From Escherichia phage BEU42: DNA of 64,000 bases. The notes under the pieces were generated by a model that ran no database searches, was not told the origin of the DNA, and saw only the letters and a program-made list of their open reading frames with translations. Position numbers and translations under genes: made by a program. The stretch lies in sequence record OM632669.1. The stretch is one strand, 5' to 3'. Of this stretch, positions 28,501 to 57,528 are shown piece by piece (positions within the stretch are counted from its first letter, which is position 1; each line of letters starts with the position of its first letter).

Positions 28501-31500
28501 GTCATATTTCTGTTGAGCGTAGTAACGGTCAGCAGGGTTAGTACTATCAGGGTCAGCCATGAAATGTTCTACCGTAAGGTGTTTCATTACATGGGTATAA
28601 AGTTCCTGAGCACGAGCCATAGCGTGTGGGTCAATTGCAGCTTCAGTTGCTAATGCAGCAGTAACCATCTGGAATACAGATTGTTCCTGAGCAGTCATAT
28701 TGAAGCCACGAGACTGAACATCACGAACCAGTCGAGTAGCACTCATTAATGCATTAGCCACATTGCCACGACGTTCTACTTCTGTAACTGGGTCAGTACG
28801 AAGGTAATCAGTTACCAGTTTATCGAAGGTCTGATTCAACTGAGACAGACGTTCATTGTTGCCATATGCTTTGCTATGGAACAGTGTGCCATCTTTAGCT
28901 ACTGCCTGAGTTGTAGGTTGGCTACGCATCAGAATTGCAGAGTTAAACAGCAGATTAGAGAACATATCTTCTCCCAATGCAGGAGCTTGTTTACGTCCCC
29001 AAATCAATTTCTTAATGGCCTGATAAACATCTTTCACCATTTGAACCAGTGAAGATGTTCTCTTCTGTTTAGCAGCAAGAGCACGGTTAGCTAACCCCCA
29101 AGCCATAAACTCATTAAGAGCAGCAGCTTTAGAGATAGCTGGGTCAACAAAGCCATTACTCAAATGACCTTCAATAGTTGCAATAGCATCAGCATATGCT
29201 TCTCTCATTTCTGGAGAATCTTTGGAAATATCCAGAGAACGGAACTGTTCCATCAGACCTTCAAGGTTCTCAATAGCCTGCTTAGAAGTAGGGCTTACTT
29301 CATTACCCTGATAGAAGGAATAAACTTCCTCAAAGGTAGAAGCATGAACCAGTTCATGAATGAGGGTTTCCATAGATGGGCTAACCAGATAAATGGTCTT
29401 ATCATCGAAGTTAGTCCAGCCATAAATATTGCCTGCCTGAGCTTCTTCCATTTCCTGAGAAGTCAATTCAGTAACATTCTTCTGACGAGCATACTCTGCA
29501 ACCTGAGTAGGTGTACCGTAGATAATCTTATAGTCTTTAGCTGCCAGTGATTTCTGAATCTCAGCAAGAGTAGCTGCCTGAGTAGATGGCAGATTACTAA
29601 TCTTAGCCAGATTACGAATAGCAGTAGCAGACAGGATACGAACACCGGATGCCTTATGCTCACGGCCTACCATACCAAAGTCTGGATTCACTGGTTCTTT
29701 TTCAGAAACAGTTTCTTCTTTGACTTCAGCCTTAGCCTTAGCGACTTTTTGTTTACGGGCTTCTAACTCTTCACGGAAAAGTTTATTCAGTTCATCAGCC
29801 TGTTGTTCAGGAGTCATATTGCTGAGGTCAATCTTACCGTTGTTCTGATAAGGAGCACCTACAGCAGCCATCTGGTCAATGGACAGATTTACCTTATCCA
29901 GTACCTTATGGCGAATATCTACACCCAGTGCAATATTACGTAAGTTACGTTCAATCAGAGATGCAGCATTAGCAATATCATCTACAGTAGCATTCTCACG
30001 TTGGTCATATTCCAGAGCAGATTTACCAATTGCTTCCAATGCTTCAGGGGACAACTTGCTGAAATCTACATTTTTCATGAACTTAGCATATGATTCGTAA
30101 ACATTCTTAATAGGGTTACCCTGCCAAGAAGTGTAAACAGCTTCATTAGCCTTACGACTAGCATCAGTGATGTCATTCAAACCAATGTTCATACCATCAA
30201 AGATTTTGAGGGTATTCTTTGGTGCACCTTTCATAGTGGAAAGAGTTTGCATCATCATGCCGTCACCAGTACCAATAGTCATAAATGGAATACCTGCTAC
30301 ACCAGCCTGTGCTGGGGCATAGATACTCATTGGTACACGCATACGGTCATCAAGGTTAGTAGCTAATACCTGATTTGCTACTTCTGCATTTTCTGAGCCA
30401 GCAATGTAGAAAGTCTGAGAACCAGTCTCAATCATAGGAGCTAAGTTATTCAGAGAAGCCTGAATATCATTCAGTTCTTTCTGAGTAAGGAAATCGCCTT
30501 TCTTCCATGTCGGGTCTTTAGCCTTCTCTGTCAGTTTCTCCTGTACTCGCTGTTTGAACATATCTTCCAGCACTACAGATTGAATCTGAGTAGCTTTCTG
30601 TAATTGTTCAGTGGAGTACACCAGACTTTCACCCACAGTCTGAGTAATACCATTACGTAGTGGTTCTACAAAGAAGTGCAGCATATTTTCCTGAAGTGCC
30701 TTCAGTTGCTCACCCTTAATGGTATAGGTCTTAGGATTGATTTTCCCTTTGGCTCCTGCACCTGTGGATTGTAGTTCCAGTACACCTTTACGTTTAACAG
30801 GAACGGTAGAAGTCAGTGTTTCCATATCTTTCAGGAAACGAGCAAGAAGTTCTTCAGCATGTGCTTCTGAAGCAGCTTGCTTACCAAACATTGCCATAGC
30901 AGCAGAAATATTTGGGTCTTTAGCACGAGCTTTCAGCACATCGGACATACGCTCATAGATGGCATCAGTAACAGAACTAACCAGCTTACCTGCAATACCA
31001 CGAGCACCAGAACCATAGATGGTAATAGTCAGTGGGTTCTTAGCAATACCACGTTTAAGTTCTAAAGCACCATTCTCACCGAGATTAATATCCGGTAAGA
31101 ACAAATCCATCAGAGAAAGAAGACTGTCTATCTGGGACTGAATAGGCATATTAGAAGCGTAGTTACTACGTAACTTACCCAACGATTCCATCAAAGCATT
31201 AGTGGATGCTTGATATAAATCATTATTGTCAGCAGTAGAACGATGCTCATTCATGGTCTTATTTGGAGAACCAATGAACAAGCCACCTTTGGCAATGTTA
31301 CGAATCCAGTCAGGGGTAAACAGGCCACCTGTCATTAGCATCATGGCATTGATTGGACCATTAGTAACACCATCTGCTTCTACATACAGTGGGGTTACAA
31401 ATGCAGATTTATCCTCTGCTACTAAGTAACGGGAATACTCCATAAGAGCCATCAATGCTACGAATGACTTCCTATCCCCTAATGCTGTATTCAGAACACC

Positions 31501-34500
31501 AACTGCATTTTCTGGTAAGGAACCAGTGGTATTAAACTCAACCATCATATCAATGGCTGGTTTCAGATTACCTTCCAGTAATTTAGTCAACTCGTCAGAC
31601 ATAACCTCACGAGTCATAGTATGGACTTTAATGTCCAATGCCTGAGCCAGACCTAACTGGAATGCAGAGAAGTCTTCATTGTTCTGGTTCGATAAATCCA
31701 AAGTAGCTTTAGTAGGTAGGATAGCCTCACGAACCAGTTTGGCTGATTGAGGATTGTATTTACCTAACATCTGCATACGACCAACACGGGTCATATTATA
31801 TGCATAGTGAATAGGCACAGTAGAGATGTCTTCACTCTGTGCTCTTACCTGCTCAATGACGGAAAACAGTTGGTTGTAAGAGTCCTCTACTGAACGGTTC
31901 TTACCTTCCAGAGATTTAGCATGATTATCATTAAGTAACTCTTTATTCAGAGTACCAGCACCCATCAGTTCGAGAATACGGTCTTTACCTAACGTCTCGT
32001 AGAATTGAACCATTGGAGTGTGTACATAGAACTCTGTAGCCTGCTCTGCTTTCAATGCAGCCTTCTGTTCTGGAGTATTACGAACAGCAGGATTACGAAG
32101 CTGAGTATTAGCTACAGGAGGAATATCATCACCAAAGAACATCTTCTCTGTAGGATTCACTAAAACAGCTTCTTCAATAGCAGTAGGGAAGCTATTAATT
32201 GGGTCGAAGGAATCCAGTTCAGTAATGGTGTACAGACCAATAGTCTTCTTATTATCTGGGTCAATTTCTGACATATCCACGATGTTCTCTACAACATCAG
32301 TAGACTCTACAAATGCAGCCAGAATTTCCGCAGCCATTGCTGTAGGGATACCTTTGGTATAGCCCAATGGAGCATTTGGATTACGAGATAATCCCCAGTA
32401 AGACTCAATTTTCTGAGCCAGGGAACTAACTGCTTCAGTGAGTGTCATACCAGTATCAAATTGCTCTACTAAACCTTCTGGCAGCAGAGCTTGGTCAATA
32501 CCAGTAATAGCAGCAACATCTTTTGCATCTTTGATAGCAGTATTGCTGGTAGCAGTAAGTCTCCACTGAAGACCTGCTAATACAGCAGTCTGTAGCAATT
32601 GCTCATTGTACTTAAAGGTATCCCCATCCTGTTCAACGATGTTAAGTAACTTACCGCCTACCCAACGGTTGGCTTCTGTACCCTGAGCAAAACGTTTACC
32701 AACATCCTTAGTGTTAAGGAACTTAGCCAGACGGGAACGAAGAATATCAGCAATACCTTCCCCATGTTCCATGAGTTCTTTGTATCGCTTAATAACTTCC
32801 CCATTAAAAGCAGGATTAGCAACTTCTTTCTCAGTAAAGAGTTCATAACGAGCACGGGAAGACAGAGCTTGAGCTACATCTTTTAGAGGTGCTTCTGAAC
32901 CAACAGTACGGGATTTCTGTTCTTCCGGTAAGGTAAAGGACAATTTGAAATAGTTCTTAATACCCTCTGCTTTAGAATCAGCAGTACCTACCAATGAGGG
33001 GTAAACAGCATCGATACCTTCTCTTAATTCTTCTGTAACTGTGCTTTCTTTTGCAGAAGTTTCAGTTTCTTTAACAGATTCAGTAGGTTGCTTGATGGTG
33101 TCCTCATTAGTAAGGTTAACATCCTGTTTTTCAGACTGGTTCACAGGTTCTTTTATAGCCTGTGGGCTAGACTCTTTAGTAGTAGGTTCTGTTTTAACAG
33201 ATTCACTAACAGGAGTCTTAGTCTGTACAGTAGATGTAACTGGTTCCTGTTTTGTAACAGGAGTTTCTTTAACCTGATTCACGGAGTCAGCTTTCGGTTG
33301 AGAAGAAGCAACGTCTCGATTGCCTTGACGGAATGCCTTGACCACCTCAGCAGCAGGAGCGTTAAGACGTGAATCCAATGGAGTAACTTTTATATGACTG
33401 ACCTTCAGTTCCGGGTAAGCCGAAGCGAGGGCATTAGCAATATCCGCTACCGTTTTCGCTTCAAGAGCAACTTGCTGGGCAAATTTAACCGACTTAGTGT
33501 CATAGGGATTGACCCCCAATCCGGTACGGCTACGAACCCATTCTCTGTCAGCAGTAAGAGCTTGGTAGTGGACAGACTTATTCTTATCCGCATCCCCCGT
33601 AACAAGATGCTCATTCAACGCTCCAACCTTATTCTGCATGTGCTGGGCGAACTGCATAAAGTCGTTCAGGTAAGCGGAGGCCAACTCGAAATTACCAGAG
33701 TTATACGCAGACCGAATCCTATTCGCATGTTGCAACGCAGAGTATTGTCCTTCCTGAGTTCTGCTCTCATCCGTTTTAATCTGTTTACTCACAATGTCTT
33801 GAGGACGTAATCCAAGACGGGCAGCTTCTGCATCATATTCCCGTGCCCCCTTCAGGATTGCAGCAGCATTCTGAAGGGCAGCAATTTGGCGATTATTCAG
33901 TTTAATACGACCATCAGCAGCATGTTTAAGAACAACATTTACAGATTCTGGATTGAGCTTTTCAGGAGCTACTTCAGCAGCTAATGCTACGTTCTGCATT
34001 TCCTGTGGACTGGATTCTTCAGTCACATCCAAAGAACCATTCTGGGCAGATTCATTAATCATTCGATTAATAACATTCAGTGCACCAATTACTTTTGGTG
34101 TGTTCTGAATATTAGCTGTCAGATTTGTATAACGATTGAGTAACTCAATAGCCGGAGAATCTTTAGGAATGCTATCCAGTGCAGCAGGGTCACGGTTAAT
34201 GAATTGCTCAAACTCTGAAACAGCATCATACATATAAGATGCAGCTTCCATCAGTGCTTGAGGATTAGATTCATCTAATGTGTTAACTAGGTCTGCTAAC
34301 TTTTGAATAACCTGTACTTGGTCAGTAGAACCAGCTACAGCATTACGAATATGCTCTGGTGCTTCCTGATAATTTTCAGGATTAAAACGAGTAGCATTCA
34401 TTAAGTCAGAAACATACTGGTGTGCTGCAACTTTCTGTTCCGGAGTAGCATCAGTTGCTTCAACAGCATCACGAATAGTAACTTCTGCTTCTGGTGCTTG

Positions 34501-36057
34501 AGCCATAGCTTCTTGTGCTGCCTGTGCAACATAGTCATCAGCAACAGGAGATGCTTCTTCATTCTGCTTCATAACCCGCTCACCACGAGCTACCAAAGTG
34601 TTCTTAATAGGGGAAACAACCTTACCTGCTACACTACCAGCAGCTTTAACACCAGCCATTGTGGTACGCAATACAGGAGCAGTTGCAGCACCTGCTAAAC
34701 GAGCAGCACCAGCCGGAGCCTGTACAACACCAGCAGAACCAAAGCCATAAAGAGCACCTAAACCAGCTTGTGTACCGACACCTTTAAGCAAGTCTTGGTT
34801 CTTATCAATGTTTTGTTGCTGTGCAATATTCTGAGCCAGTTGGCCTGTAGCACCCTGAACACCTTCTTCCACTGTTTCACGGGCAAGGTTCATACCTACA
34901 GCACCTAAAGAACCAGCACGGAAAGGAGCCATCTCAAAACGAGATACCAGAGGACCAGTTGCAGCAGCAATAGGTAATTGAATAGCAGCAGCAGTAAGAC
35001 CAGTTTCAGATGCAGTCTGACGACGAGCCTGTTCTGGAGACATACCATCTTTAATATGTTGCTGATAAACAGGAGACTTCTCTAAGTCTTTAAGACTCAT
35101 CTTCATAATTTCATCAGCAGTTTGTTGGTATGCACCACCAGCTTCCATTACACCAACACCAACCATACCTGGTGCAGCTCTGCCTACAGTAGAAGCAATA
35201 CGAGCCAGGGACTGAGTACCAGTACCTGCATCAATAGCACCAGCCAATGCAGCACTACGAAGAGTATTTGCTGGAACAACTGCTTTACCCAGTAAAGATG
35301 CACCCTTTAATACAGGACCAGCACCTAATAGAGAACCTACCCCTTCTGCTAACCCATCAGAAATAATAGAGTCAGTTTGAGCAGCATTCTCAATTGAACC
35401 TACAAAATCACGTCCAAATTTAGATAAGGAAGCTACTATGTCATTAGTGCCTTCTTTCTTATCTGTTTGATACTGACGTTCACTCTCTACCTCACTCATT
35501 AAGTTACGAGCAGCGAAGAGCTTACGTTTATCTTGTAATGCTTGGCTTTGGGTAGCATGGACAGCATCATTAAACTTACTCAATTGTTGAGCAACAACAG
35601 CACCTGCGTCATCGTTGAGTAAGCCTGCCCCAAGAGCACCAATGCCCCCAAGGGTATTAACAAAACCAAGACCAACACCAGTAGCAATATCCCCCAGTTC
35701 TTCCCCAGGAGTTCTTGTAGTAACTGAATCATTGAATACCTGGTTCCCTGCATCAGCACGAGCGTTGATAAGTTGTAAGCCTTGCTCAACCCCATACTTA
35801 TTCATGATTTGCATTGGAGTCAGATTCATGAAATCTGATTGCACTGTCCCTGGTTCAAATGCATTAGCCCCAACATTACCAGTACGGGCAGCTTGCATTT
35901 GATAAGCAGCATCAGGAGAAACAAGAGGAGTAGTGACACCTTGTTCAGCTTTCTTCTGGGCGGTTGCAGTAGAGACGTCAACTTGCTTTGCATTGGTTAC
36001 GCTGTCTGCGAACCCAGCCAGTCTATCAAATACTGACATAGTAGGTTTCCTATACAA
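25537..36057 (-). CDS. virion-encapsidated RNA polymerase (N4 gp50-like giant vRNAP)
   Basis: Single ORF of 3506 codons, or exactly 3500 if translation starts at the second Met (ATG ending at 36039, which has AGGAAA upstream). Central region has single-subunit RNAP-like elements (motif B-like KRGIAKNPLTITIYGSGARG). The ~3500-aa size is the hallmark of N4-like phages. Confidence 0.8.
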   Translation of the reverse strand: MYRKPTMSVFDRLAGFADSVTNAKQVDVSTATAQKKAEQGVTTPLVSPDAAYQMQAARTGNVGANAFEPGTVQSDFMNLTPMQIMNKYGVEQGLQLINARADAGNQVFNDSVTTRTPGEELGDIATGVGLGFVNTLGGIGALGAGLLNDDAGAVVAQQLSKFNDAVHATQSQALQDKRKLFAARNLMSEVESERQYQTDKKEGTNDIVASLSKFGRDFVGSIENAAQTDSIISDGLAEGVGSLLGAGPVLKGASLLGKAVVPANTLRSAALAGAIDAGTGTQSLARIASTVGRAAPGMVGVGVMEAGGAYQQTADEIMKMSLKDLEKSPVYQQHIKDGMSPEQARRQTASETGLTAAAIQLPIAAATGPLVSRFEMAPFRAGSLGAVGMNLARETVEEGVQGATGQLAQNIAQQQNIDKNQDLLKGVGTQAGLGALYGFGSAGVVQAPAGAARLAGAATAPVLRTTMAGVKAAGSVAGKVVSPIKNTLVARGERVMKQNEEASPVADDYVAQAAQEAMAQAPEAEVTIRDAVEATDATPEQKVAAHQYVSDLMNATRFNPENYQEAPEHIRNAVAGSTDQVQVIQKLADLVNTLDESNPQALMEAASYMYDAVSEFEQFINRDPAALDSIPKDSPAIELLNRYTNLTANIQNTPKVIGALNVINRMINESAQNGSLDVTEESSPQEMQNVALAAEVAPEKLNPESVNVVLKHAADGRIKLNNRQIAALQNAAAILKGAREYDAEAARLGLRPQDIVSKQIKTDESRTQEGQYSALQHANRIRSAYNSGNFELASAYLNDFMQFAQHMQNKVGALNEHLVTGDADKNKSVHYQALTADREWVRSRTGLGVNPYDTKSVKFAQQVALEAKTVADIANALASAYPELKVSHIKVTPLDSRLNAPAAEVVKAFRQGNRDVASSQPKADSVNQVKETPVTKQEPVTSTVQTKTPVSESVKTEPTTKESSPQAIKEPVNQSEKQDVNLTNEDTIKQPTESVKETETSAKESTVTEELREGIDAVYPSLVGTADSKAEGIKNYFKLSFTLPEEQKSRTVGSEAPLKDVAQALSSRARYELFTEKEVANPAFNGEVIKRYKELMEHGEGIADILRSRLAKFLNTKDVGKRFAQGTEANRWVGGKLLNIVEQDGDTFKYNEQLLQTAVLAGLQWRLTATSNTAIKDAKDVAAITGIDQALLPEGLVEQFDTGMTLTEAVSSLAQKIESYWGLSRNPNAPLGYTKGIPTAMAAEILAAFVESTDVVENIVDMSEIDPDNKKTIGLYTITELDSFDPINSFPTAIEEAVLVNPTEKMFFGDDIPPVANTQLRNPAVRNTPEQKAALKAEQATEFYVHTPMVQFYETLGKDRILELMGAGTLNKELLNDNHAKSLEGKNRSVEDSYNQLFSVIEQVRAQSEDISTVPIHYAYNMTRVGRMQMLGKYNPQSAKLVREAILPTKATLDLSNQNNEDFSAFQLGLAQALDIKVHTMTREVMSDELTKLLEGNLKPAIDMMVEFNTTGSLPENAVGVLNTALGDRKSFVALMALMEYSRYLVAEDKSAFVTPLYVEADGVTNGPINAMMLMTGGLFTPDWIRNIAKGGLFIGSPNKTMNEHRSTADNNDLYQASTNALMESLGKLRSNYASNMPIQSQIDSLLSLMDLFLPDINLGENGALELKRGIAKNPLTITIYGSGARGIAGKLVSSVTDAIYERMSDVLKARAKDPNISAAMAMFGKQAASEAHAEELLARFLKDMETLTSTVPVKRKGVLELQSTGAGAKGKINPKTYTIKGEQLKALQENMLHFFVEPLRNGITQTVGESLVYSTEQLQKATQIQSVVLEDMFKQRVQEKLTEKAKDPTWKKGDFLTQKELNDIQASLNNLAPMIETGSQTFYIAGSENAEVANQVLATNLDDRMRVPMSIYAPAQAGVAGIPFMTIGTGDGMMMQTLSTMKGAPKNTLKIFDGMNIGLNDITDASRKANEAVYTSWQGNPIKNVYESYAKFMKNVDFSKLSPEALEAIGKSALEYDQRENATVDDIANAASLIERNLRNIALGVDIRHKVLDKVNLSIDQMAAVGAPYQNNGKIDLSNMTPEQQADELNKLFREELEARKQKVAKAKAEVKEETVSEKEPVNPDFGMVGREHKASGVRILSATAIRNLAKISNLPSTQAATLAEIQKSLAAKDYKIIYGTPTQVAEYARQKNVTELTSQEMEEAQAGNIYGWTNFDDKTIYLVSPSMETLIHELVHASTFEEVYSFYQGNEVSPTSKQAIENLEGLMEQFRSLDISKDSPEMREAYADAIATIEGHLSNGFVDPAISKAAALNEFMAWGLANRALAAKQKRTSSLVQMVKDVYQAIKKLIWGRKQAPALGEDMFSNLLFNSAILMRSQPTTQAVAKDGTLFHSKAYGNNERLSQLNQTFDKLVTDYLRTDPVTEVERRGNVANALMSATRLVRDVQSRGFNMTAQEQSVFQMVTAALATEAAIDPHAMARAQELYTHVMKHLTVEHFMADPDSTNPADRYYAQQKYDTISGANLVEVDAKGRTSLLPTFLGLAMVNEELRSIIKEMPVPKADKKLGNDVDTLLTNAGTQVMESLNRRMAGDQKATNVQDSIDALSETIMAAALKRESFYDAVATPTGNFIDRANQYVTDSIERLSETVIEKADKVIANPSNVAAKGVAHLAKLTAAIASEKQGEIVAQGIMTAMNQGKVWQPFHDLVNDIVGRTKTNANVYDLIKLVKSQISQDRQQFREHLPTVIAGKFSRKLTDTEWSAMHTGLGKTDLAVLRETMSMAEIRDLLSSFKKVKDEISTLEKEIQNQAGRNWNLVQKKSKQLAQYMITGEVGNNLLRNAHAISRLLGERITNGPVADVAAIDKLITLYSLELMNKSDRDLLSELAQSEVEGMEFSIAYMVGQRTEEMRKAKGDNRTLLNHFKGYIPVENQQGVNLIIADDKEFAKLNSQSFTRIGTYQGSTGFRTGSKGYYFSPVAARAPYSQGILQNVRNTAGGVDIGTGFTLGTMVAGRITDKPTVERITKALAKGERGREPLMPIYNSKGQVVAYEQSVDPNMLKHLNQDNHFAKMVGVWRGRQVEEAKAQRFNDILIEQLHAMYEKDIKDSNANKSQYVNLLGKIDDPVLADAINLMNIETRRKAEELFGKDELWVRRDMLNDALGYRAASIGDVWTGNSRWSSSTLDTVKKMFLGAFGNKAYHVVMNAENTIQNLVKDAKTVIVVKSVVVPAVNFLANIYQMIGRGVPVKDIAVNIPRKTSEINQYIKSRLRQIDAEAELRAAEGNPNLVRKLKTEIQSITDSHRRMSIWPLIEAGEFSSIADAGISRDDLLVAEGKIHEYMEKLANKLPEKVRNAGRYALIAKDTALFQGIQKTVEYSDFIAKAIIYDDLVKRKKKSSSEALGQVTEEFVNYDRLPGRFRGYMESMGLMWFYNFKIRSIKVAMSMIRNNPVHSLIATVVPAPAMFGNVGLPIQDNMLTMLAEGRLDYSLGFGQGLRAPTLNPWFNLTH

Positions 36058-36102
36058 ACTTATATCTATTAGAAATCACACTATACCTAGTGTAAGGACG
36101 AG

Positions 36103-36126
36103 AAAAAAGCCCCGAAGGGCTTTTGT
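36103..36126 (-). terminator. terminator/attenuator hairpin upstream of the vRNAP gene
   Basis: Plus-strand aaaaaagccc-cgaa-gggctttt; on the minus strand the hairpin is followed by TTTTTT; lies between the 644-aa gene stop (36140) and the vRNAP start. Confidence 0.5.
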
Positions 36127-36139
36127 ATTATGGTAGAAA

Positions 36140-38074
36140 TTAACGAGGAAATATATCAGGGATACCCAATCGACGTCCGGCATCTCTGCCTAAACTTCTC
36201 CGGTTTGCCTCGCTCTCTTCCTGTTTAATATTTTGTAGGCTCTTAATATCCAAATTCTGAGGGTCAGCAGCTACAGCACTACGAGCACCATCAAGAAGAC
36301 GTTTAGCAGTATTAACTCGCTCCTGATAGCGAGGTAGTACACTTCTAAGGTTTTCCTGACCGGTCTGAATACGACGCTGTACTTCACGTAAATCAGCAAG
36401 TGCAGTATCTAACGTATTCTGTGCTGCATAGATGTTTGATTGAATTTGTGCAGTAAGCTGATTACGAGCATTCTGTTCAATAGCAGTACCAGTAGTTGCA
36501 AGTTTTGCATTTGCTTCTACGGCTGCTTTATCCAGTTGGTAATCACCACCCAAATCAATAACATCAGTATCAAAGGCATTTCGAATACCACTAAACCATC
36601 CCTCTGGTTTACCAGTGATACTGCGTTGAATGATTGCTCCTGCCATAGCGGGAGAAATAGCATTCTGTTTTGCTACCTCATTGATTTGTCGAACCAGTGC
36701 ACCTTGGTTAATGCCTTTCAGTTCATTGTTATCAATAATACGTTTAGCCACCTGACCAGTCGTAGAAGGGTCAACAGTAGCAGCTTGGTATTCAGGCAGC
36801 AGAGTATTACCAATATTCTGCATATTACGAGTACCAACAGTATTACCAGCAACAGAAGTGAATGCTTGTTCCTGTAATGGATTAATAGAATTACCTGTTT
36901 CTGCTTGAGCAATGTAATCCTTCATTTCATCCCATGACAGGTTCTTATAAGCACCCGGAGTATCATCTGGTAAAGCAGCCCATGTACTCTTCAGATTGCC
37001 ATTCTTACGAGCATTAAAAATAGCTTCACCCAGTTTGTCTTGGTTCTCCGGAGACATAGGGATGTTCTGCCAATCTTCACCAAATACCTTTGGAGCAAAG
37101 TCTTTAAGGGTATCTTGGTTAATCTGGTATGCACCAACAGGAGAAGCACCTAGTGTCTTCTTCATAGTGTCTTGATGCTGAACCACCTGACCTAAGTTCA
37201 TCTGAGTAATAGGTACATCAGTTGGTGTGAACTTATAGGTAGTGTCATATGCAGAACCATTCCGAGTACCCTGAGTACCAGGAGGAGATAGAGATGCAGA
37301 ACCAGTTCCCGGAGTATATGCACCTGGGTATGCTCTATCTAACTGAGATAGTGCACGACTTACTGCTCCTGGTGACATTTGGTCGAACGTACCCTCTGCA
37401 AGCATACGAGCATCGTCAGCACTGTATGCACCACGACGAATATTATTCAGTAACTGCATAGCAGCCTGAGTATCCGCATCGTTACGCATATCAACACCTA
37501 AGTTGAATAAGCTGCGACGTTGACCAATACCAGCAGTACCCTGTCCTTGAAGGTTGTTCATGTAGTCCATAACAACACCAGCAGGAAGGGTTTTTAATAC
37601 GTCTCCATACTGAGCCTGTGCTGCCTGAACCTTTCTTGGGTCACCAGATTGATAAGCCAGAGCCAATTCCTGCAATGCAGGAGCAGCAGCATCAGTAGCT
37701 GCATTTACCTTCATGGTTCTGTCATTACTGTATCGAGTGAAATCCAGATTTTGTTGTTTAGATGCTTGGTCTAACAGATTGCCAGCACGATTATCTAAGT
37801 TCTCCATAGTACGAGAAGAAATTAGAGAAGGGTCATAGCCAGCAAATAATGCTCCAGAAGCTAAGGCATTACGATACTCATTAGGGTCTTGGTAACGCAT
37901 GGCTTCAGCCATAATTGCATCACCAGCTTGCTGTCTTGCAGAGTCTCGAAAATCACCTAATGCATTACTCAATCCGGCAGTGGCATTACCCAGCATATTG
38001 GAGAAAGTACGAATACTATCCCCAACACCAGAGAAAGAAGGAGCATCAACATTACGCCATGTAATTTGAGCCAT
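36140..38074 (-). CDS. putative virion protein (644 aa)
   Basis: Late-strand ORF with AAGAGG RBS; Q/N/A-rich; no motif recognised. N4 gp51 position by gene count. Confidence 0.5.
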   Translation of the reverse strand: MAQITWRNVDAPSFSGVGDSIRTFSNMLGNATAGLSNALGDFRDSARQQAGDAIMAEAMRYQDPNEYRNALASGALFAGYDPSLISSRTMENLDNRAGNLLDQASKQQNLDFTRYSNDRTMKVNAATDAAAPALQELALAYQSGDPRKVQAAQAQYGDVLKTLPAGVVMDYMNNLQGQGTAGIGQRRSLFNLGVDMRNDADTQAAMQLLNNIRRGAYSADDARMLAEGTFDQMSPGAVSRALSQLDRAYPGAYTPGTGSASLSPPGTQGTRNGSAYDTTYKFTPTDVPITQMNLGQVVQHQDTMKKTLGASPVGAYQINQDTLKDFAPKVFGEDWQNIPMSPENQDKLGEAIFNARKNGNLKSTWAALPDDTPGAYKNLSWDEMKDYIAQAETGNSINPLQEQAFTSVAGNTVGTRNMQNIGNTLLPEYQAATVDPSTTGQVAKRIIDNNELKGINQGALVRQINEVAKQNAISPAMAGAIIQRSITGKPEGWFSGIRNAFDTDVIDLGGDYQLDKAAVEANAKLATTGTAIEQNARNQLTAQIQSNIYAAQNTLDTALADLREVQRRIQTGQENLRSVLPRYQERVNTAKRLLDGARSAVAADPQNLDIKSLQNIKQEESEANRRSLGRDAGRRLGIPDIFPR

Positions 38075-38084
38075 GTGATACCTC

Positions 38085-38537
38085 TTAACGAGTTAAGCGA
38101 TTAGCTGCAATGTAAGCATCAGCCGTAGATTGGTCACGATTTTCTGCAACAGCACGACTACGAGCACGGTCTTCCAGAGCAGTGTTATAGGACTTAATCT
38201 GGTTATTCAGATTAGTGTTAGTAACATCTTTAGCAAAAGAGAACTGACTCTTAGCTAACTTGTTAGCCTGTAATGCACCATAGATATTACCCAGTGCGTT
38301 AAGACCACCTAACCCCAACTGGAAGGTAGGAATGTTCAGACCCAGTTGGTCAGTAAGCCCTTGAGTCTGCCCACCGGTATTCCCTGTAGCACCACCAGTA
38401 ATATTCTGAAGCCAATCATTACTAAGGATGCCGGATTGCATAGGGTTATAGTTCATGGTTGGGGTATTAAAGGAACCATACCCATAGCCAAAATTGCTTT
38501 GTGCAGATGGGGTTCCAAAAAGGAAATTAGTATCCAT
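38085..38537 (-). CDS. putative virion protein (150 aa)
   Basis: ORF with AGGAGA RBS; Gly/Asn/Thr-rich N-terminus. N4 gp52 position. Confidence 0.5.
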   Translation of the reverse strand: MDTNFLFGTPSAQSNFGYGYGSFNTPTMNYNPMQSGILSNDWLQNITGGATGNTGGQTQGLTDQLGLNIPTFQLGLGGLNALGNIYGALQANKLAKSQFSFAKDVTNTNLNNQIKSYNTALEDRARSRAVAENRDQSTADAYIAANRLTR

Positions 38538-38550
38538 AAGGATTCTCCTG

Positions 38551-41106
38551 TTACGTATCTAAATCAAGCTGCAACGTTATATCTGCAAAGTTGGTAATCA
38601 TGTTGTTAGACATGTCAGCTATATCATGACCAGTCATAAGAGTACGGTTAAGGAATGAATCCAATGGCTCAAATTGTTGGCCTACATTAGTTAGGTTCAT
38701 TGGGTCAATGTAACCCATGCCCTCAGTGCCAAACATTTCCTCGTACTTTTCCTGAATGGTTTTCATCTGGTCACGGTACTCTGCCATAAGTTTCTCTGTC
38801 TTTTTGACAGTTTCCATAGCAGAAGCATTGATGTAATCACTTATGCCATTTCCTACAGATGAAGTGAGTTTAATGATGTTATCTGCTTTCATCATTTCAC
38901 CCAGCATCGTAGACATGGATGAACCAGTGGATAAAGCTGTACCAACATTCATGGCTACCATAGAGGCAATGGTAGCAACAATGATTCCAATCTTATCCCC
39001 AAGCAGACTAACAGAGACTGTTTGAATAATGGACATCAGAATCATAGCTGCAATGGCATTAGCCACAGCCCCAACGATAATAGCAGCTAACCCTGCAAAA
39101 CCTAATGCAGCACCAATAGAAGCAGCAGTACCCATTACCCCAGCACCAGCAGCAGGAGTAAAGAACACAGACACTACTACTGCAACAACAACCACTACTA
39201 CTTTAAAGATGCCAGACTGATACCATTTCTTCTTAACTTTCTTATATGAGTTAAGAACCAGATAACAACATGCAGTAGATAACTGAGTACCATTTACCAA
39301 AGACATACTACGATAAATGTTGTTATGAAGAGGGATGATAAATCCGGACTCTTCATCATCATTTAGTGCATCTACACCAGAAATGCTTACAGATTTATTC
39401 TTGTAAACATTATTGTTATGGTTCAGGCCATAGACAGAAATCTTCCTCCATGAATTATCCCCATCCTGCCAATACATTGTTATCTTATCTAGCCTGTAGA
39501 TATTAAACCCAACTTTGTCATTACCCTTTTCAGAGTACATAACGGCTTTCTGCATAAGGACTACAGTACCTTCATAAGCAAACTTGAGCTGCCCTTTCTT
39601 GGCTCCAGAGAATGCTTTTCCCGAACCAACTGACTCTTCAATGAAGTTCCAACTAATAGTCATGTTGTAACGGTATCCACCGTTAGAACGAATATTAATG
39701 GATTTAGAAGGTATTGTTGGATATACGGGTCTTTTAGGGGGTTTCCCTATGGGAATATCCCTATTACCACTACGAGATTTCCACCATTCCTGGTAGGCAT
39801 CAAAGTCCCTGTTAGCCTGAGCAAAGCCTTCTACCAAAGCATCCATAGTTGGGTAGTTTGGGTCAGCAGGCATTGACTGATTCACTAACTGGAAGAACCT
39901 GTATATAATGTCAGAAATCTTACCCCCTGTAGCCTTCTTAAAGGCTTTCTTACAAAGAGTATATGTAGAACCAGAAATCCAGTTCTTATCACTACGGATA
40001 GGGATGAATGAATAGAATCTGTTATTGGTTGTTTTATTAATAAACAAAGCATCAAGAACAGCATTACCACTATTCTGTTTATAAATAAACAGTTGAGGCA
40101 TACCACCAGCAGACAGAGTAGTAACTACATCTGTATTCTGATAAGACCATGTATAACCTAAAGTATCTGTAGTTACTGTAGTAGTTCTGGTTTCAGTAAC
40201 CCCACCACCTAAATCAATAACTTCAGTGTTTGTAGTGGAACCAGTAGATACAGTACCAGTCTGTACCTGGGTCATTGTAGTCTTACGAATAATGATTAAG
40301 CCTACTTCACTTGGTTCACGAAATTCTTTCTCGTAAACATCTGAGAAGTTAGTCCAACTAACCTGTTCTTCTTCAGTATTGGTACTTTCCTCATCAGGTC
40401 TACCATCAGAGAATACACTCTTAATATGAGTAACTGTCTTCAGAGTAGCTGACTTAGGGGTATGGTTCTGAGATACCTGAGTCCATTCAGAAGTAGAAGG
40501 TAAGTCATCAGCAGATGATACAGATACAACAGGATGAACCACTGGGTCTGCAACACTAGTAGGCTGTATGTAGTAATAATTCACATACAGATACATTGCA
40601 TCCTGACTGTAATTCTTTGGATAAAAGGATAACTCACTACCATCAGTAGCAGTGAGTACAATCCTGTCATCATCCATGATGTCTATTTCAAACTCTTCAG
40701 TAATACGGTCTGGATAATTCTCATAGAGGAATTTATCAGCCCATTCCTCAAAATCACCAAATCCAATCCTACTGCTCTGAACCTGTACCTCATAACCTGC
40801 TTTTTGAGGAACTTGCCATTTAACTACTTCAGGGTCTATCTGAGACAGTACTGACAAGTTCCCATAAGCAATACCAATTGAAGGGTCATAGTTAGTTGCA
40901 GCCCAACCAGGGAATCTACGTAAACGAATACCAGGTCCATTTAAATAAGAGTCAGTGATGGTATCACCCATACTAAAGTCAGATTTACTGACGATGTTAC
41001 CAATCACCGTAGTCTTTAAATAATTTGGACGTTTATGTATATCCCCTGCCAAATTGTAGACAGAGGATGCTACGTAGATTTTAGTCTTACTGCTAAACAG
41101 TCCCAT
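38551..41106 (-). CDS. large virion protein with internal multi-helix hydrophobic region (851 aa)
   Basis: ORF; residues about 600-720 form consecutive hydrophobic segments (VVVVVVAVVVSVFFTPAAGAGVMGTAASIGAALGFAGLAAIIVGAVANAIAAMILMSII...). N4 gp53 position. Confidence 0.5.
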   Translation of the reverse strand: MGLFSSKTKIYVASSVYNLAGDIHKRPNYLKTTVIGNIVSKSDFSMGDTITDSYLNGPGIRLRRFPGWAATNYDPSIGIAYGNLSVLSQIDPEVVKWQVPQKAGYEVQVQSSRIGFGDFEEWADKFLYENYPDRITEEFEIDIMDDDRIVLTATDGSELSFYPKNYSQDAMYLYVNYYYIQPTSVADPVVHPVVSVSSADDLPSTSEWTQVSQNHTPKSATLKTVTHIKSVFSDGRPDEESTNTEEEQVSWTNFSDVYEKEFREPSEVGLIIIRKTTMTQVQTGTVSTGSTTNTEVIDLGGGVTETRTTTVTTDTLGYTWSYQNTDVVTTLSAGGMPQLFIYKQNSGNAVLDALFINKTTNNRFYSFIPIRSDKNWISGSTYTLCKKAFKKATGGKISDIIYRFFQLVNQSMPADPNYPTMDALVEGFAQANRDFDAYQEWWKSRSGNRDIPIGKPPKRPVYPTIPSKSINIRSNGGYRYNMTISWNFIEESVGSGKAFSGAKKGQLKFAYEGTVVLMQKAVMYSEKGNDKVGFNIYRLDKITMYWQDGDNSWRKISVYGLNHNNNVYKNKSVSISGVDALNDDEESGFIIPLHNNIYRSMSLVNGTQLSTACCYLVLNSYKKVKKKWYQSGIFKVVVVVVAVVVSVFFTPAAGAGVMGTAASIGAALGFAGLAAIIVGAVANAIAAMILMSIIQTVSVSLLGDKIGIIVATIASMVAMNVGTALSTGSSMSTMLGEMMKADNIIKLTSSVGNGISDYINASAMETVKKTEKLMAEYRDQMKTIQEKYEEMFGTEGMGYIDPMNLTNVGQQFEPLDSFLNRTLMTGHDIADMSNNMITNFADITLQLDLDT

Positions 41107-41109
41107 GTA

Positions 41110-42018
<909 letters not shown>

Positions 42019-45587: not shown

Positions 45588-48371
<2,784 letters not shown>

Positions 48372-48391
<20 letters not shown>

Positions 48392-48998
48392 TACACCTCT
48401 CCAGAGGGACATTACCAATACGGTTAGCAATCCATCCTGTAGTGTACTCAGGCATATTAAGAGATAAATAGTAGTTTAACTGTTTACCATCCAGAGACTT
48501 CAAAATGAGCTTACAGGCTTCTACTTTGCCTCGTTTATTCTGAAGGCTCTTATATGCACTTAGAGTTCCAGAACCGACTTTACCATCAACTTGTATTTTA
48601 GGGTAGTCTTTGCCATTTCTGGAGAAAGCATTAAGAGATTCTTGTAACCAACGAGATGGTCTTGCAGGTCCAGTATTAACACCAGCATCTACTAGTTTTT
48701 CTGTTACCGCCGGTGATACATCTGCAAACTTAACAAAGCCAGGCTTCAAGATGTAATCGTTGTAATAAATACTTGATGCCATTTCCTGAGTTAAGTTCTT
48801 CATTGAACCATCCCAGTTATACATCGACTCTAGTTCTTGCTTATGCTTTTGAGCAACCTGAATAGTTACACCATGATTAGTTTCACCTCCTGGGTCTTTG
48901 GGGTCATTAACGTATCCACCCTCAACAGCAAATACAGCAGCAATGATTGCTGCAATAACTCCTCCAACACCACCAACTTTCTTCTTACTTATTGCCAC
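48372..48998 (-). CDS. endolysin, GH108-type N-acetylmuramidase with N-terminal SAR-like segment
   Basis: Motif EGGYVNDPKDPGGETNHGVT after a Gly/Ala-rich weakly hydrophobic N-terminus (VGGVGGVIAAIIAAVFAV); GTG start with AGGAGG RBS; 208 aa. Confidence 0.65.

Positions 48999-50954: not shown

Positions 50955-57528
<6,574 letters not shown>

Follow-up and report, generated by a model that had tools for sequence, protein, structure and literature searches.

A hydrophobic virion protein encoded beside the ejection genes of Escherichia phage BEU42 is very probably an N4 gp53-type tail plug, here in a deletion allele

Identification of the gene

What does a virion protein do that carries about one hundred consecutive residues of membrane-grade hydrophobicity and is encoded next to ejection protein genes? 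The question is raised by the open reading frame (ORF) at positions 38551–41106 (minus strand) of a 64,000-nucleotide stretch of DNA from Escherichia phage BEU42 (sequence record OM632669.1), which was analysed as a whole and is called the window here. A sequence-only reading of the window had taken the 851 amino acid (aa) product of this ORF to be a virion protein that spans the cell envelope and conducts the DNA and the virion RNA polymerase (vRNAP). Our analysis indicates that the ORF is very probably the orthologue of gp53 of coliphage N4, the single-copy tail plug of the Schitoviridae, and we call its product gp53 below. The identity, synteny and fold of the protein and the conservation of its hydrophobic block come from the present analysis; what is said below of the knot, of the number of copies and of the contact with gp65 comes from the published N4 cryo-electron microscopy (cryo-EM).

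The gene is real, and the ORF call gives it an ATG start and 851 codons plus a stop codon; its product is shorter than is normal for the family (N4 gp53 has 885 aa), and it is a deletion allele of that protein. It is 99% identical in amino acid sequence to N4 gp53 (YP_950531.1) over all aligned columns, with 11 substitutions. The DNA of the gene is 98.2% identical to that of N4 gp53 and 100% identical to that of Escherichia phages BEU5, BEU13, BEU14 and BEU44, a figure that disregards a deletion of 102 nucleotides (nt) that is absent from all four. More widely, a BLAST comparison of the window with phage BEU5 runs for about 42 kb at 100% identity without any mismatch, and the window belongs to Enquatrovirus. 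A sequence search of the PDB with gp53 gave two matches only, 9YFT chain FA ("Gp53", 885 aa, E=0) and, from Pseudomonas phage DEV, 9ZE4_M ("N4 gp53-like protein"; E 5.5e-16 when one sequence alone was the query and 6e-33 with a 116-sequence family profile). Among the PHROGs it falls in family 2220 (E 7.3e-283), which is without annotation, and when gp53 and the four genes around it were scanned against Pfam, gp53 had no match. The gene order on the minus strand is also that of N4 (NC_008720), with portal gp59, gp58, gp57, capsid gp56, gp55, gp54, gp53, gp52, gp51 and vRNAP gp50 in succession, and DEV has the same synteny around its plug gene (PMC12892993).

The hydrophobic block

Residues 631–736 of gp53 (38899–39216, minus strand) form a Gly/Ala/Val/Ile-rich hydrophobic block, which is delimited here by its hydrophobicity, composition, conservation among homologues and alignment to DEV gp74. 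The sequence-only reading had recognized consecutive helices of this composition but had put them at about residues 600–720; the block and its helical nature hold up, and the placement does not. The block is directly preceded by a Lys-rich flank, KKVKKKWYQSG, and contains two uncharged stretches of 68 aa (636–703) and 31 aa (706–736). The ten-residue run of Val and Ala that had been pointed out is indeed there (VVVVVVAVVV, residues 636–645), and many small-xxx-small (glycine-zipper-like) motifs lie between residues 655 and 736. Gly, Ala, Val, Ile, Leu, Met and Phe make up 76% of residues 635–735 versus 38% of the rest of the protein.

The 19-residue Kyte-Doolittle (KD) mean of gp53 peaks at 2.68, and 55 of its 19-aa windows have a KD mean of at least 1.6; of the 63 ORFs in the window with a length of at least 100 aa, no other has more than eight. 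Hessa-type 19-mer sums fall below 0 at gp53 residues 664–694, and the best segments of gp50, gp51, gp52 and gp54 have sums of +4 to +10.6; no segment of gp50, gp51 or gp52, the accepted ejection proteins, is thus as hydrophobic as the gp53 block. By hydrophobicity the block is transmembrane-grade, with segments like those of podovirus ejection proteins. It is also a family trait. Across 116 homologues with 36–98% identity to gp53, the aligned 101-aa block has a median mean KD of 1.59 and a median of three charged residues, and G665, A675, G679 and N683 are invariant. In the alignment from the PDB sequence search, conservation between the N4 and DEV proteins is highest in the block and its flank. 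The numbers of KD windows, the Hessa-type sums and the conservation in 116 homologues together mean that the block is not a chance feature.

A probable cork and not a channel

A cryo-EM structure of N4 gp53 is available (PDB 9YFT; Nat Commun 2026, PMC13434306), and a second N4 structure that names gp53 as the plug is cited in PMC12892993 (Zheng et al. 2025, Structure 33:1250). In 9YFT the gp54 tail tube, a dodecamer, is stoppered at its distal end by six short α-helices, built from N4 gp53 residues 29–56 and 670–716, which make up a "hydrophobic knot" (PMC13434306). As the sequence-only reading had supposed, the hydrophobic segment is therefore helical, and not a buried β core, and helices are also predicted for it in our AlphaFold2 (AF2) model. 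There is a single copy of gp53 in each virion, with a 12:6:1 mismatch, and domains D9-D10 (gp65 residues 1183–1382) of one subunit of the gp65 sheath/receptor-binding protein clamp the plug core (PMC13434306). That the protein belongs to the virion, as had been proposed, is established for N4 by liquid chromatography-mass spectrometry (LC-MS) as well as by its modelling in the virion (PDB 9YFT, PMC13434306), and the homologous gp74 of phage LIT1 was detected in virions by mass spectrometry in 2010 (PMC3715699). DEV gp74 has the same arrangement as the N4 plug (mBio 2026, PMC12892993).

By alignment, N4 residues 670–716 correspond to residues 636–682 here (39061–39201, minus strand), which are the start of the hydrophobic block and include the Val/Ala run; the published numbering (PMC13434306) was transferred through the alignment, and this segment is 100% identical to that of N4. 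The N-terminal segment that contributes to the knot (PMC13434306), residues 29–56 (40939–41022, minus strand), is likewise identical to N4, and AF2 predicts helices at 29–40 and 46–55, so that both of the knot-forming segments are preserved and both are predicted to be helical. Helices 636–682 and the N-terminal helices would then fold into a compact knot that is pushed like a cork into the opening of the tube, with the last ~160 residues of gp53 extending up the lumen beside stored gp52 and one gp65 subunit holding the external plug core. Binding of gp65 to NfrA would move the plug sideways, and the tube so opened would allow the exit of gp52, gp51, gp50 (the vRNAP) and the DNA. The unplugging trigger and the sideways displacement belong to a model proposed by the published authors.

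The properties of the block could be read in another way, with gp53 as an ejection protein whose consecutive hydrophobic helices enter the envelope of the host and there form or line a channel for the DNA and vRNAP. The KD values of up to 2.68, the Hessa-type sums below 0 at 664–694, the 68-aa uncharged stretch that follows the Lys-rich flank, and the small-xxx-small motifs would all suit such a role, as would a hydrophobicity above that of any segment of gp50, gp51 or gp52 that is conserved throughout the family, and the gene adjoins the ejection cassette. Against this, cryo-EM shows one gp53 at the tail tip with its helices knotted inside the mouth of the tube, and density for the plug is seen in full particles and in emptied ones alike; the authors explain its presence on the latter by gp65 acting as a tether and the knot binding again (PMC13434306). 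One copy cannot line a channel of ~35 Å, nor can a protein that is present once and remains on the tail be an envelope-spanning channel. The accepted N4 ejection proteins are gp50, gp51 and gp52, and it is gp51 and gp52 for which channels in bilayers have been shown (PMC13434306). Nor did the comparison with known podovirus ejection proteins that had been suggested reveal any sequence or fold similarity to gp53, or any homology between it and a known family of such proteins. Given 9YFT, the envelope-spanning channel is largely refuted and we regard it as highly improbable; what survives of the earlier proposal is a role of gp53 at the conduit taken by the DNA and vRNAP, as its plug (PMC13434306).

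A protein that plugs the tube in the virion might have a second role after the receptor-triggered displacement, if the knot and the C-terminal lumenal tail then partition into the outer membrane and anchor the tip or seed the insertion of gp52. The same hydrophobicity data (the KD means, Hessa-type sums and 55 windows) can be cited for this, and ~100 conserved hydrophobic residues seem excessive for a simple cork, given that the resolved knot covers only 636–682 of residues 631–736. Membrane-active loops of the φ29 tail knob and hydrophobic segments of T5 pb2 are comparable in principle. The C-terminal ~160 residues of gp53, beside which stored gp52 lies in the tube lumen, are not resolved in the map, and the published model does not define the state of gp53 after the trigger (PMC13434306). 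On the other hand, empty particles show the plug back in its seat (PMC13434306), and packing against the tube lumen suffices to explain a hydrophobic cork. We consider a dual role of this kind unlikely, though less so than a channel.

Predicted structure of the remainder of gp53

An AF2 run on gp53 with a 117-sequence alignment (mean predicted local distance difference test, pLDDT, 73.8) gave a mixed α/β core, a four-strand β-feather and a helical hydrophobic region. The fold of the globular core is shared by the plugs whose structures have been solved; neither fold search listed 9YFT itself among its matches (the Foldseek library of PDB entries used ends on 2026-04-08). The β-feather, residues 209–332 (40111–40482, minus strand), corresponds to the protruding, feather-like β-sheet described for gp53 (PMC13434306), and is predicted to consist of four antiparallel strands of 24–31 residues (209–232, 239–264, 270–300 and 303–332) with pLDDT of ~87–93 except for residues 261–270 at 75. 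The two Thr-rich stretches noticed upstream of the hydrophobic block are present, STGSTTNT at residues 287–294 and TTTVTTD at 308–314, and lie in long strands of this external feather; according to the model they are unrelated to the block. When the feather was compared with aerolysin-type β-pore-forming toxins, no significant fold match to their elongated pore-forming module was found. The C-terminal ~160 residues, 691–851 (38554–39036, minus strand; N4 725–885), which are thought to reach into the tail lumen, are modelled as long helices with pLDDT of 34–66.

Relationship to other plugs and ejection proteins

Compared with N4 gp53 (YP_950531.1; 9YFT chain FA), the knot segments, β-feather and C-terminus of the BEU42 protein are identical and the gene likewise lies between gp54 and gp52; apart from the 11 substitutions, it differs in that it lacks N4 residues 401–434, which belong to a helix-strand-helix element in the globular core. 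DEV gp74 (9ZE4 chain M) is much more distant, with only 12–16% identity to gp53, but its N-terminus (MGLFSSKKK), its hydrophobic block with the WY-SG-FKV signature and its C-terminal region are conserved, and its gene also follows the tail tube gene (PMC12892993). DEV gp74 has no β-feather and retains the segment that is deleted here, and it is held by a gp56-gp55-gp54 receptor-binding fibre trimer instead of the gp65 sheath (PMC12892993, PMC13434306).

The ejection proteins N4 gp50, gp51 and gp52 and T7 gp14, gp15 and gp16 resemble gp53 in being virion components with a part in genome delivery and in having membrane-grade hydrophobic segments, and gp53 is encoded beside those of its own phage. 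They differ from it in that gp53 is not ejected with the DNA in vitro and is present as one copy at the tail tip, for the most part outside the tube, compared with many copies in the head or lumen (PMC13434306). The tail needles or plugs P22 gp26 and Sf6 gp9, like gp53, close the tail channel and are released when the receptor is engaged (PMC12892993). These are trimeric coiled-coil needles that are inserted axially, unlike gp53, an asymmetric monomer whose cork is helical and hydrophobic, and PDB sequence and fold searches found no homology between them and gp53.

The 34-residue deletion

The BEU42 gene carries an in-frame deletion of 102 nt, whose junction lies between residues 400 and 401 (39905–39908, minus strand) according to protein and DNA alignments to N4 and the BLAST comparison with BEU5. 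In the latter, two 100%-identical high-scoring segment pairs join at 39905/39906 with a 2-nt overlap, AT. As this microhomology of 2 nt is all that there is at the junction, no deletion mechanism can be deduced, and it argues for neither a natural origin nor an artefact. The missing residues, N4 gp53 401–434, are MDDLKKNKDIGDIQYIYAVFGCSLNSPENTAKEY. In an AF2 model of the wild-type-length protein this segment comprises the end of a helix, an 11-residue strand (413–423) and the start of the next helix, all with pLDDT of 90–97, which suggests that the deletion takes a confidently predicted strand out of the core.

Several observations weigh against the reading of the ORF as an N4-type plug. The segment that is absent from this allele is at 100% occupancy in 116 of the 116 homologues, holds three of the 31 invariant columns of the family (N407, N425 and Y434) and is recognizable even in DEV gp74. 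In the AF2 model of the deletion allele the region of residues 350–420 drops to pLDDT of 51–78 and two neighbouring strands are lost. In addition, AF2 gives the hydrophobic block only low confidence (pLDDT 34–58) and does not reproduce the knot itself. Finally, the emptied particles of the published work had released their DNA in vitro (PMC13434306). The loss of N4 401–434 bears on the intactness of this allele and not on the descent of the gene, and the fall in AF2 confidence and the disappearance of neighbouring strands around the junction mean that a fully functional plug is not guaranteed in this allele.

The 851-aa allele might even be non-functional as written: the deletion could have arisen as an artefact when the sequence was assembled or handled, or could mark a variant that is defective or strongly attenuated, in either case not a natural working plug. 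The deletion occurs in none of the 14 full-length Enquatrovirus records of the phage collection, including the four (BEU5, BEU13, BEU14 and BEU44) that are otherwise 100% identical; an exact-product look-up found the 851-aa protein in no record of the assembly collection, and neither the viral nor the metagenome contigs scanned contain the 31-mer that spans the junction. All 112 full-length homologues listed have lengths of 877–930 aa. These facts, together with the family-wide conservation of the deleted segment and the collapse of AF2 confidence near the junction, favour such a reading. Conversely, the deletion keeps the reading frame exactly, and this remains open for 451 more codons, the rest of the gene is identical to that of BEU5, so that a viable natural or laboratory variant is possible, and AF2 still folds the remaining core and the feather. 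On balance we think a non-functional allele possible but doubtful. From the sequence, a viable variant, a defective variant and an assembly or sequence-handling artefact are all possible origins; if it is a viable natural variant, the loss of 34 residues could alter how the plug is held or released.

Neighbouring genes and other observations

The gene immediately upstream of gp53, at 41110–42009 (minus strand), is the orthologue of gp54, the dodecameric tail tube that gp53 plugs, as judged by synteny with NC_008720, a match to PHROG 2050 ("virion structural protein") and the published structure (PMC13434306). Downstream lies the ejection cassette (25537–38537, minus strand), delimited by ORF calls, the N4 annotation and PMC13434306, with gp52 at 38085–38537, gp51 at 36140–38074 and the vRNAP gp50 from 25537 to 36039 or 36057, all on the minus strand and all ejection proteins according to PMC13434306. 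The abstract of that paper makes gp51 the outer-membrane complex and gp52 the periplasmic tunnel and the legend of its Fig. 8 has them reversed, a mismatch that matters only for assigning roles to these neighbouring genes. The gp50 ORF can start at a TTG at 36057 (minus strand), giving 3506 aa, or at its first ATG at 36039, giving 3500 aa. In N4 the gene annotated as gp50 is 10,503 nt long, which fits 3500 aa, so the ATG at 36039 is probably the true start. A 1382-aa ORF at 50955–55103 (minus strand) is assigned to gp65, the sheath/receptor-binding protein, by length only, as the residue numbers given for gp65 in PMC13434306 agree with 1382 aa.

In hydrophobicity, gp53 is followed within the window by an ORF of 174 aa at 47888–48412 (minus strand), with eight 19-aa windows of KD at least 1.6 and a maximum of 2.15; the 763-aa ORF directly upstream of it is taken to be the portal gene (gp59) by gene order alone. 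Only two differences from BEU5 were found in the ~42 kb compared, the gp53 deletion and a 12-nt tandem duplication at 23029–23040 (plus strand; two copies of GTAGCTGAAGAA). The latter adds VAEE, relative to BEU5, to a 151-aa acidic ORF at 22680–23135.

Significance

The gp53 protein and the role of its hydrophobic helices are already known from the cryo-EM work of 2025–2026, and there is no new biology in them here. What is new, as far as the sequence records searched can tell, is the 851-aa deletion allele, which lacks a core strand conserved in the family and is present in no other record searched. If gp53 did have the dual role discussed above, it could serve as the N4 ejectosome's first membrane-active element, and the plug would double as a penetration device. 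More generally, the case carries a caution for the interpretation of phage genomes: transmembrane-grade helices in a virion protein need not mean a membrane channel, and here they very probably seal a proteinaceous tube.

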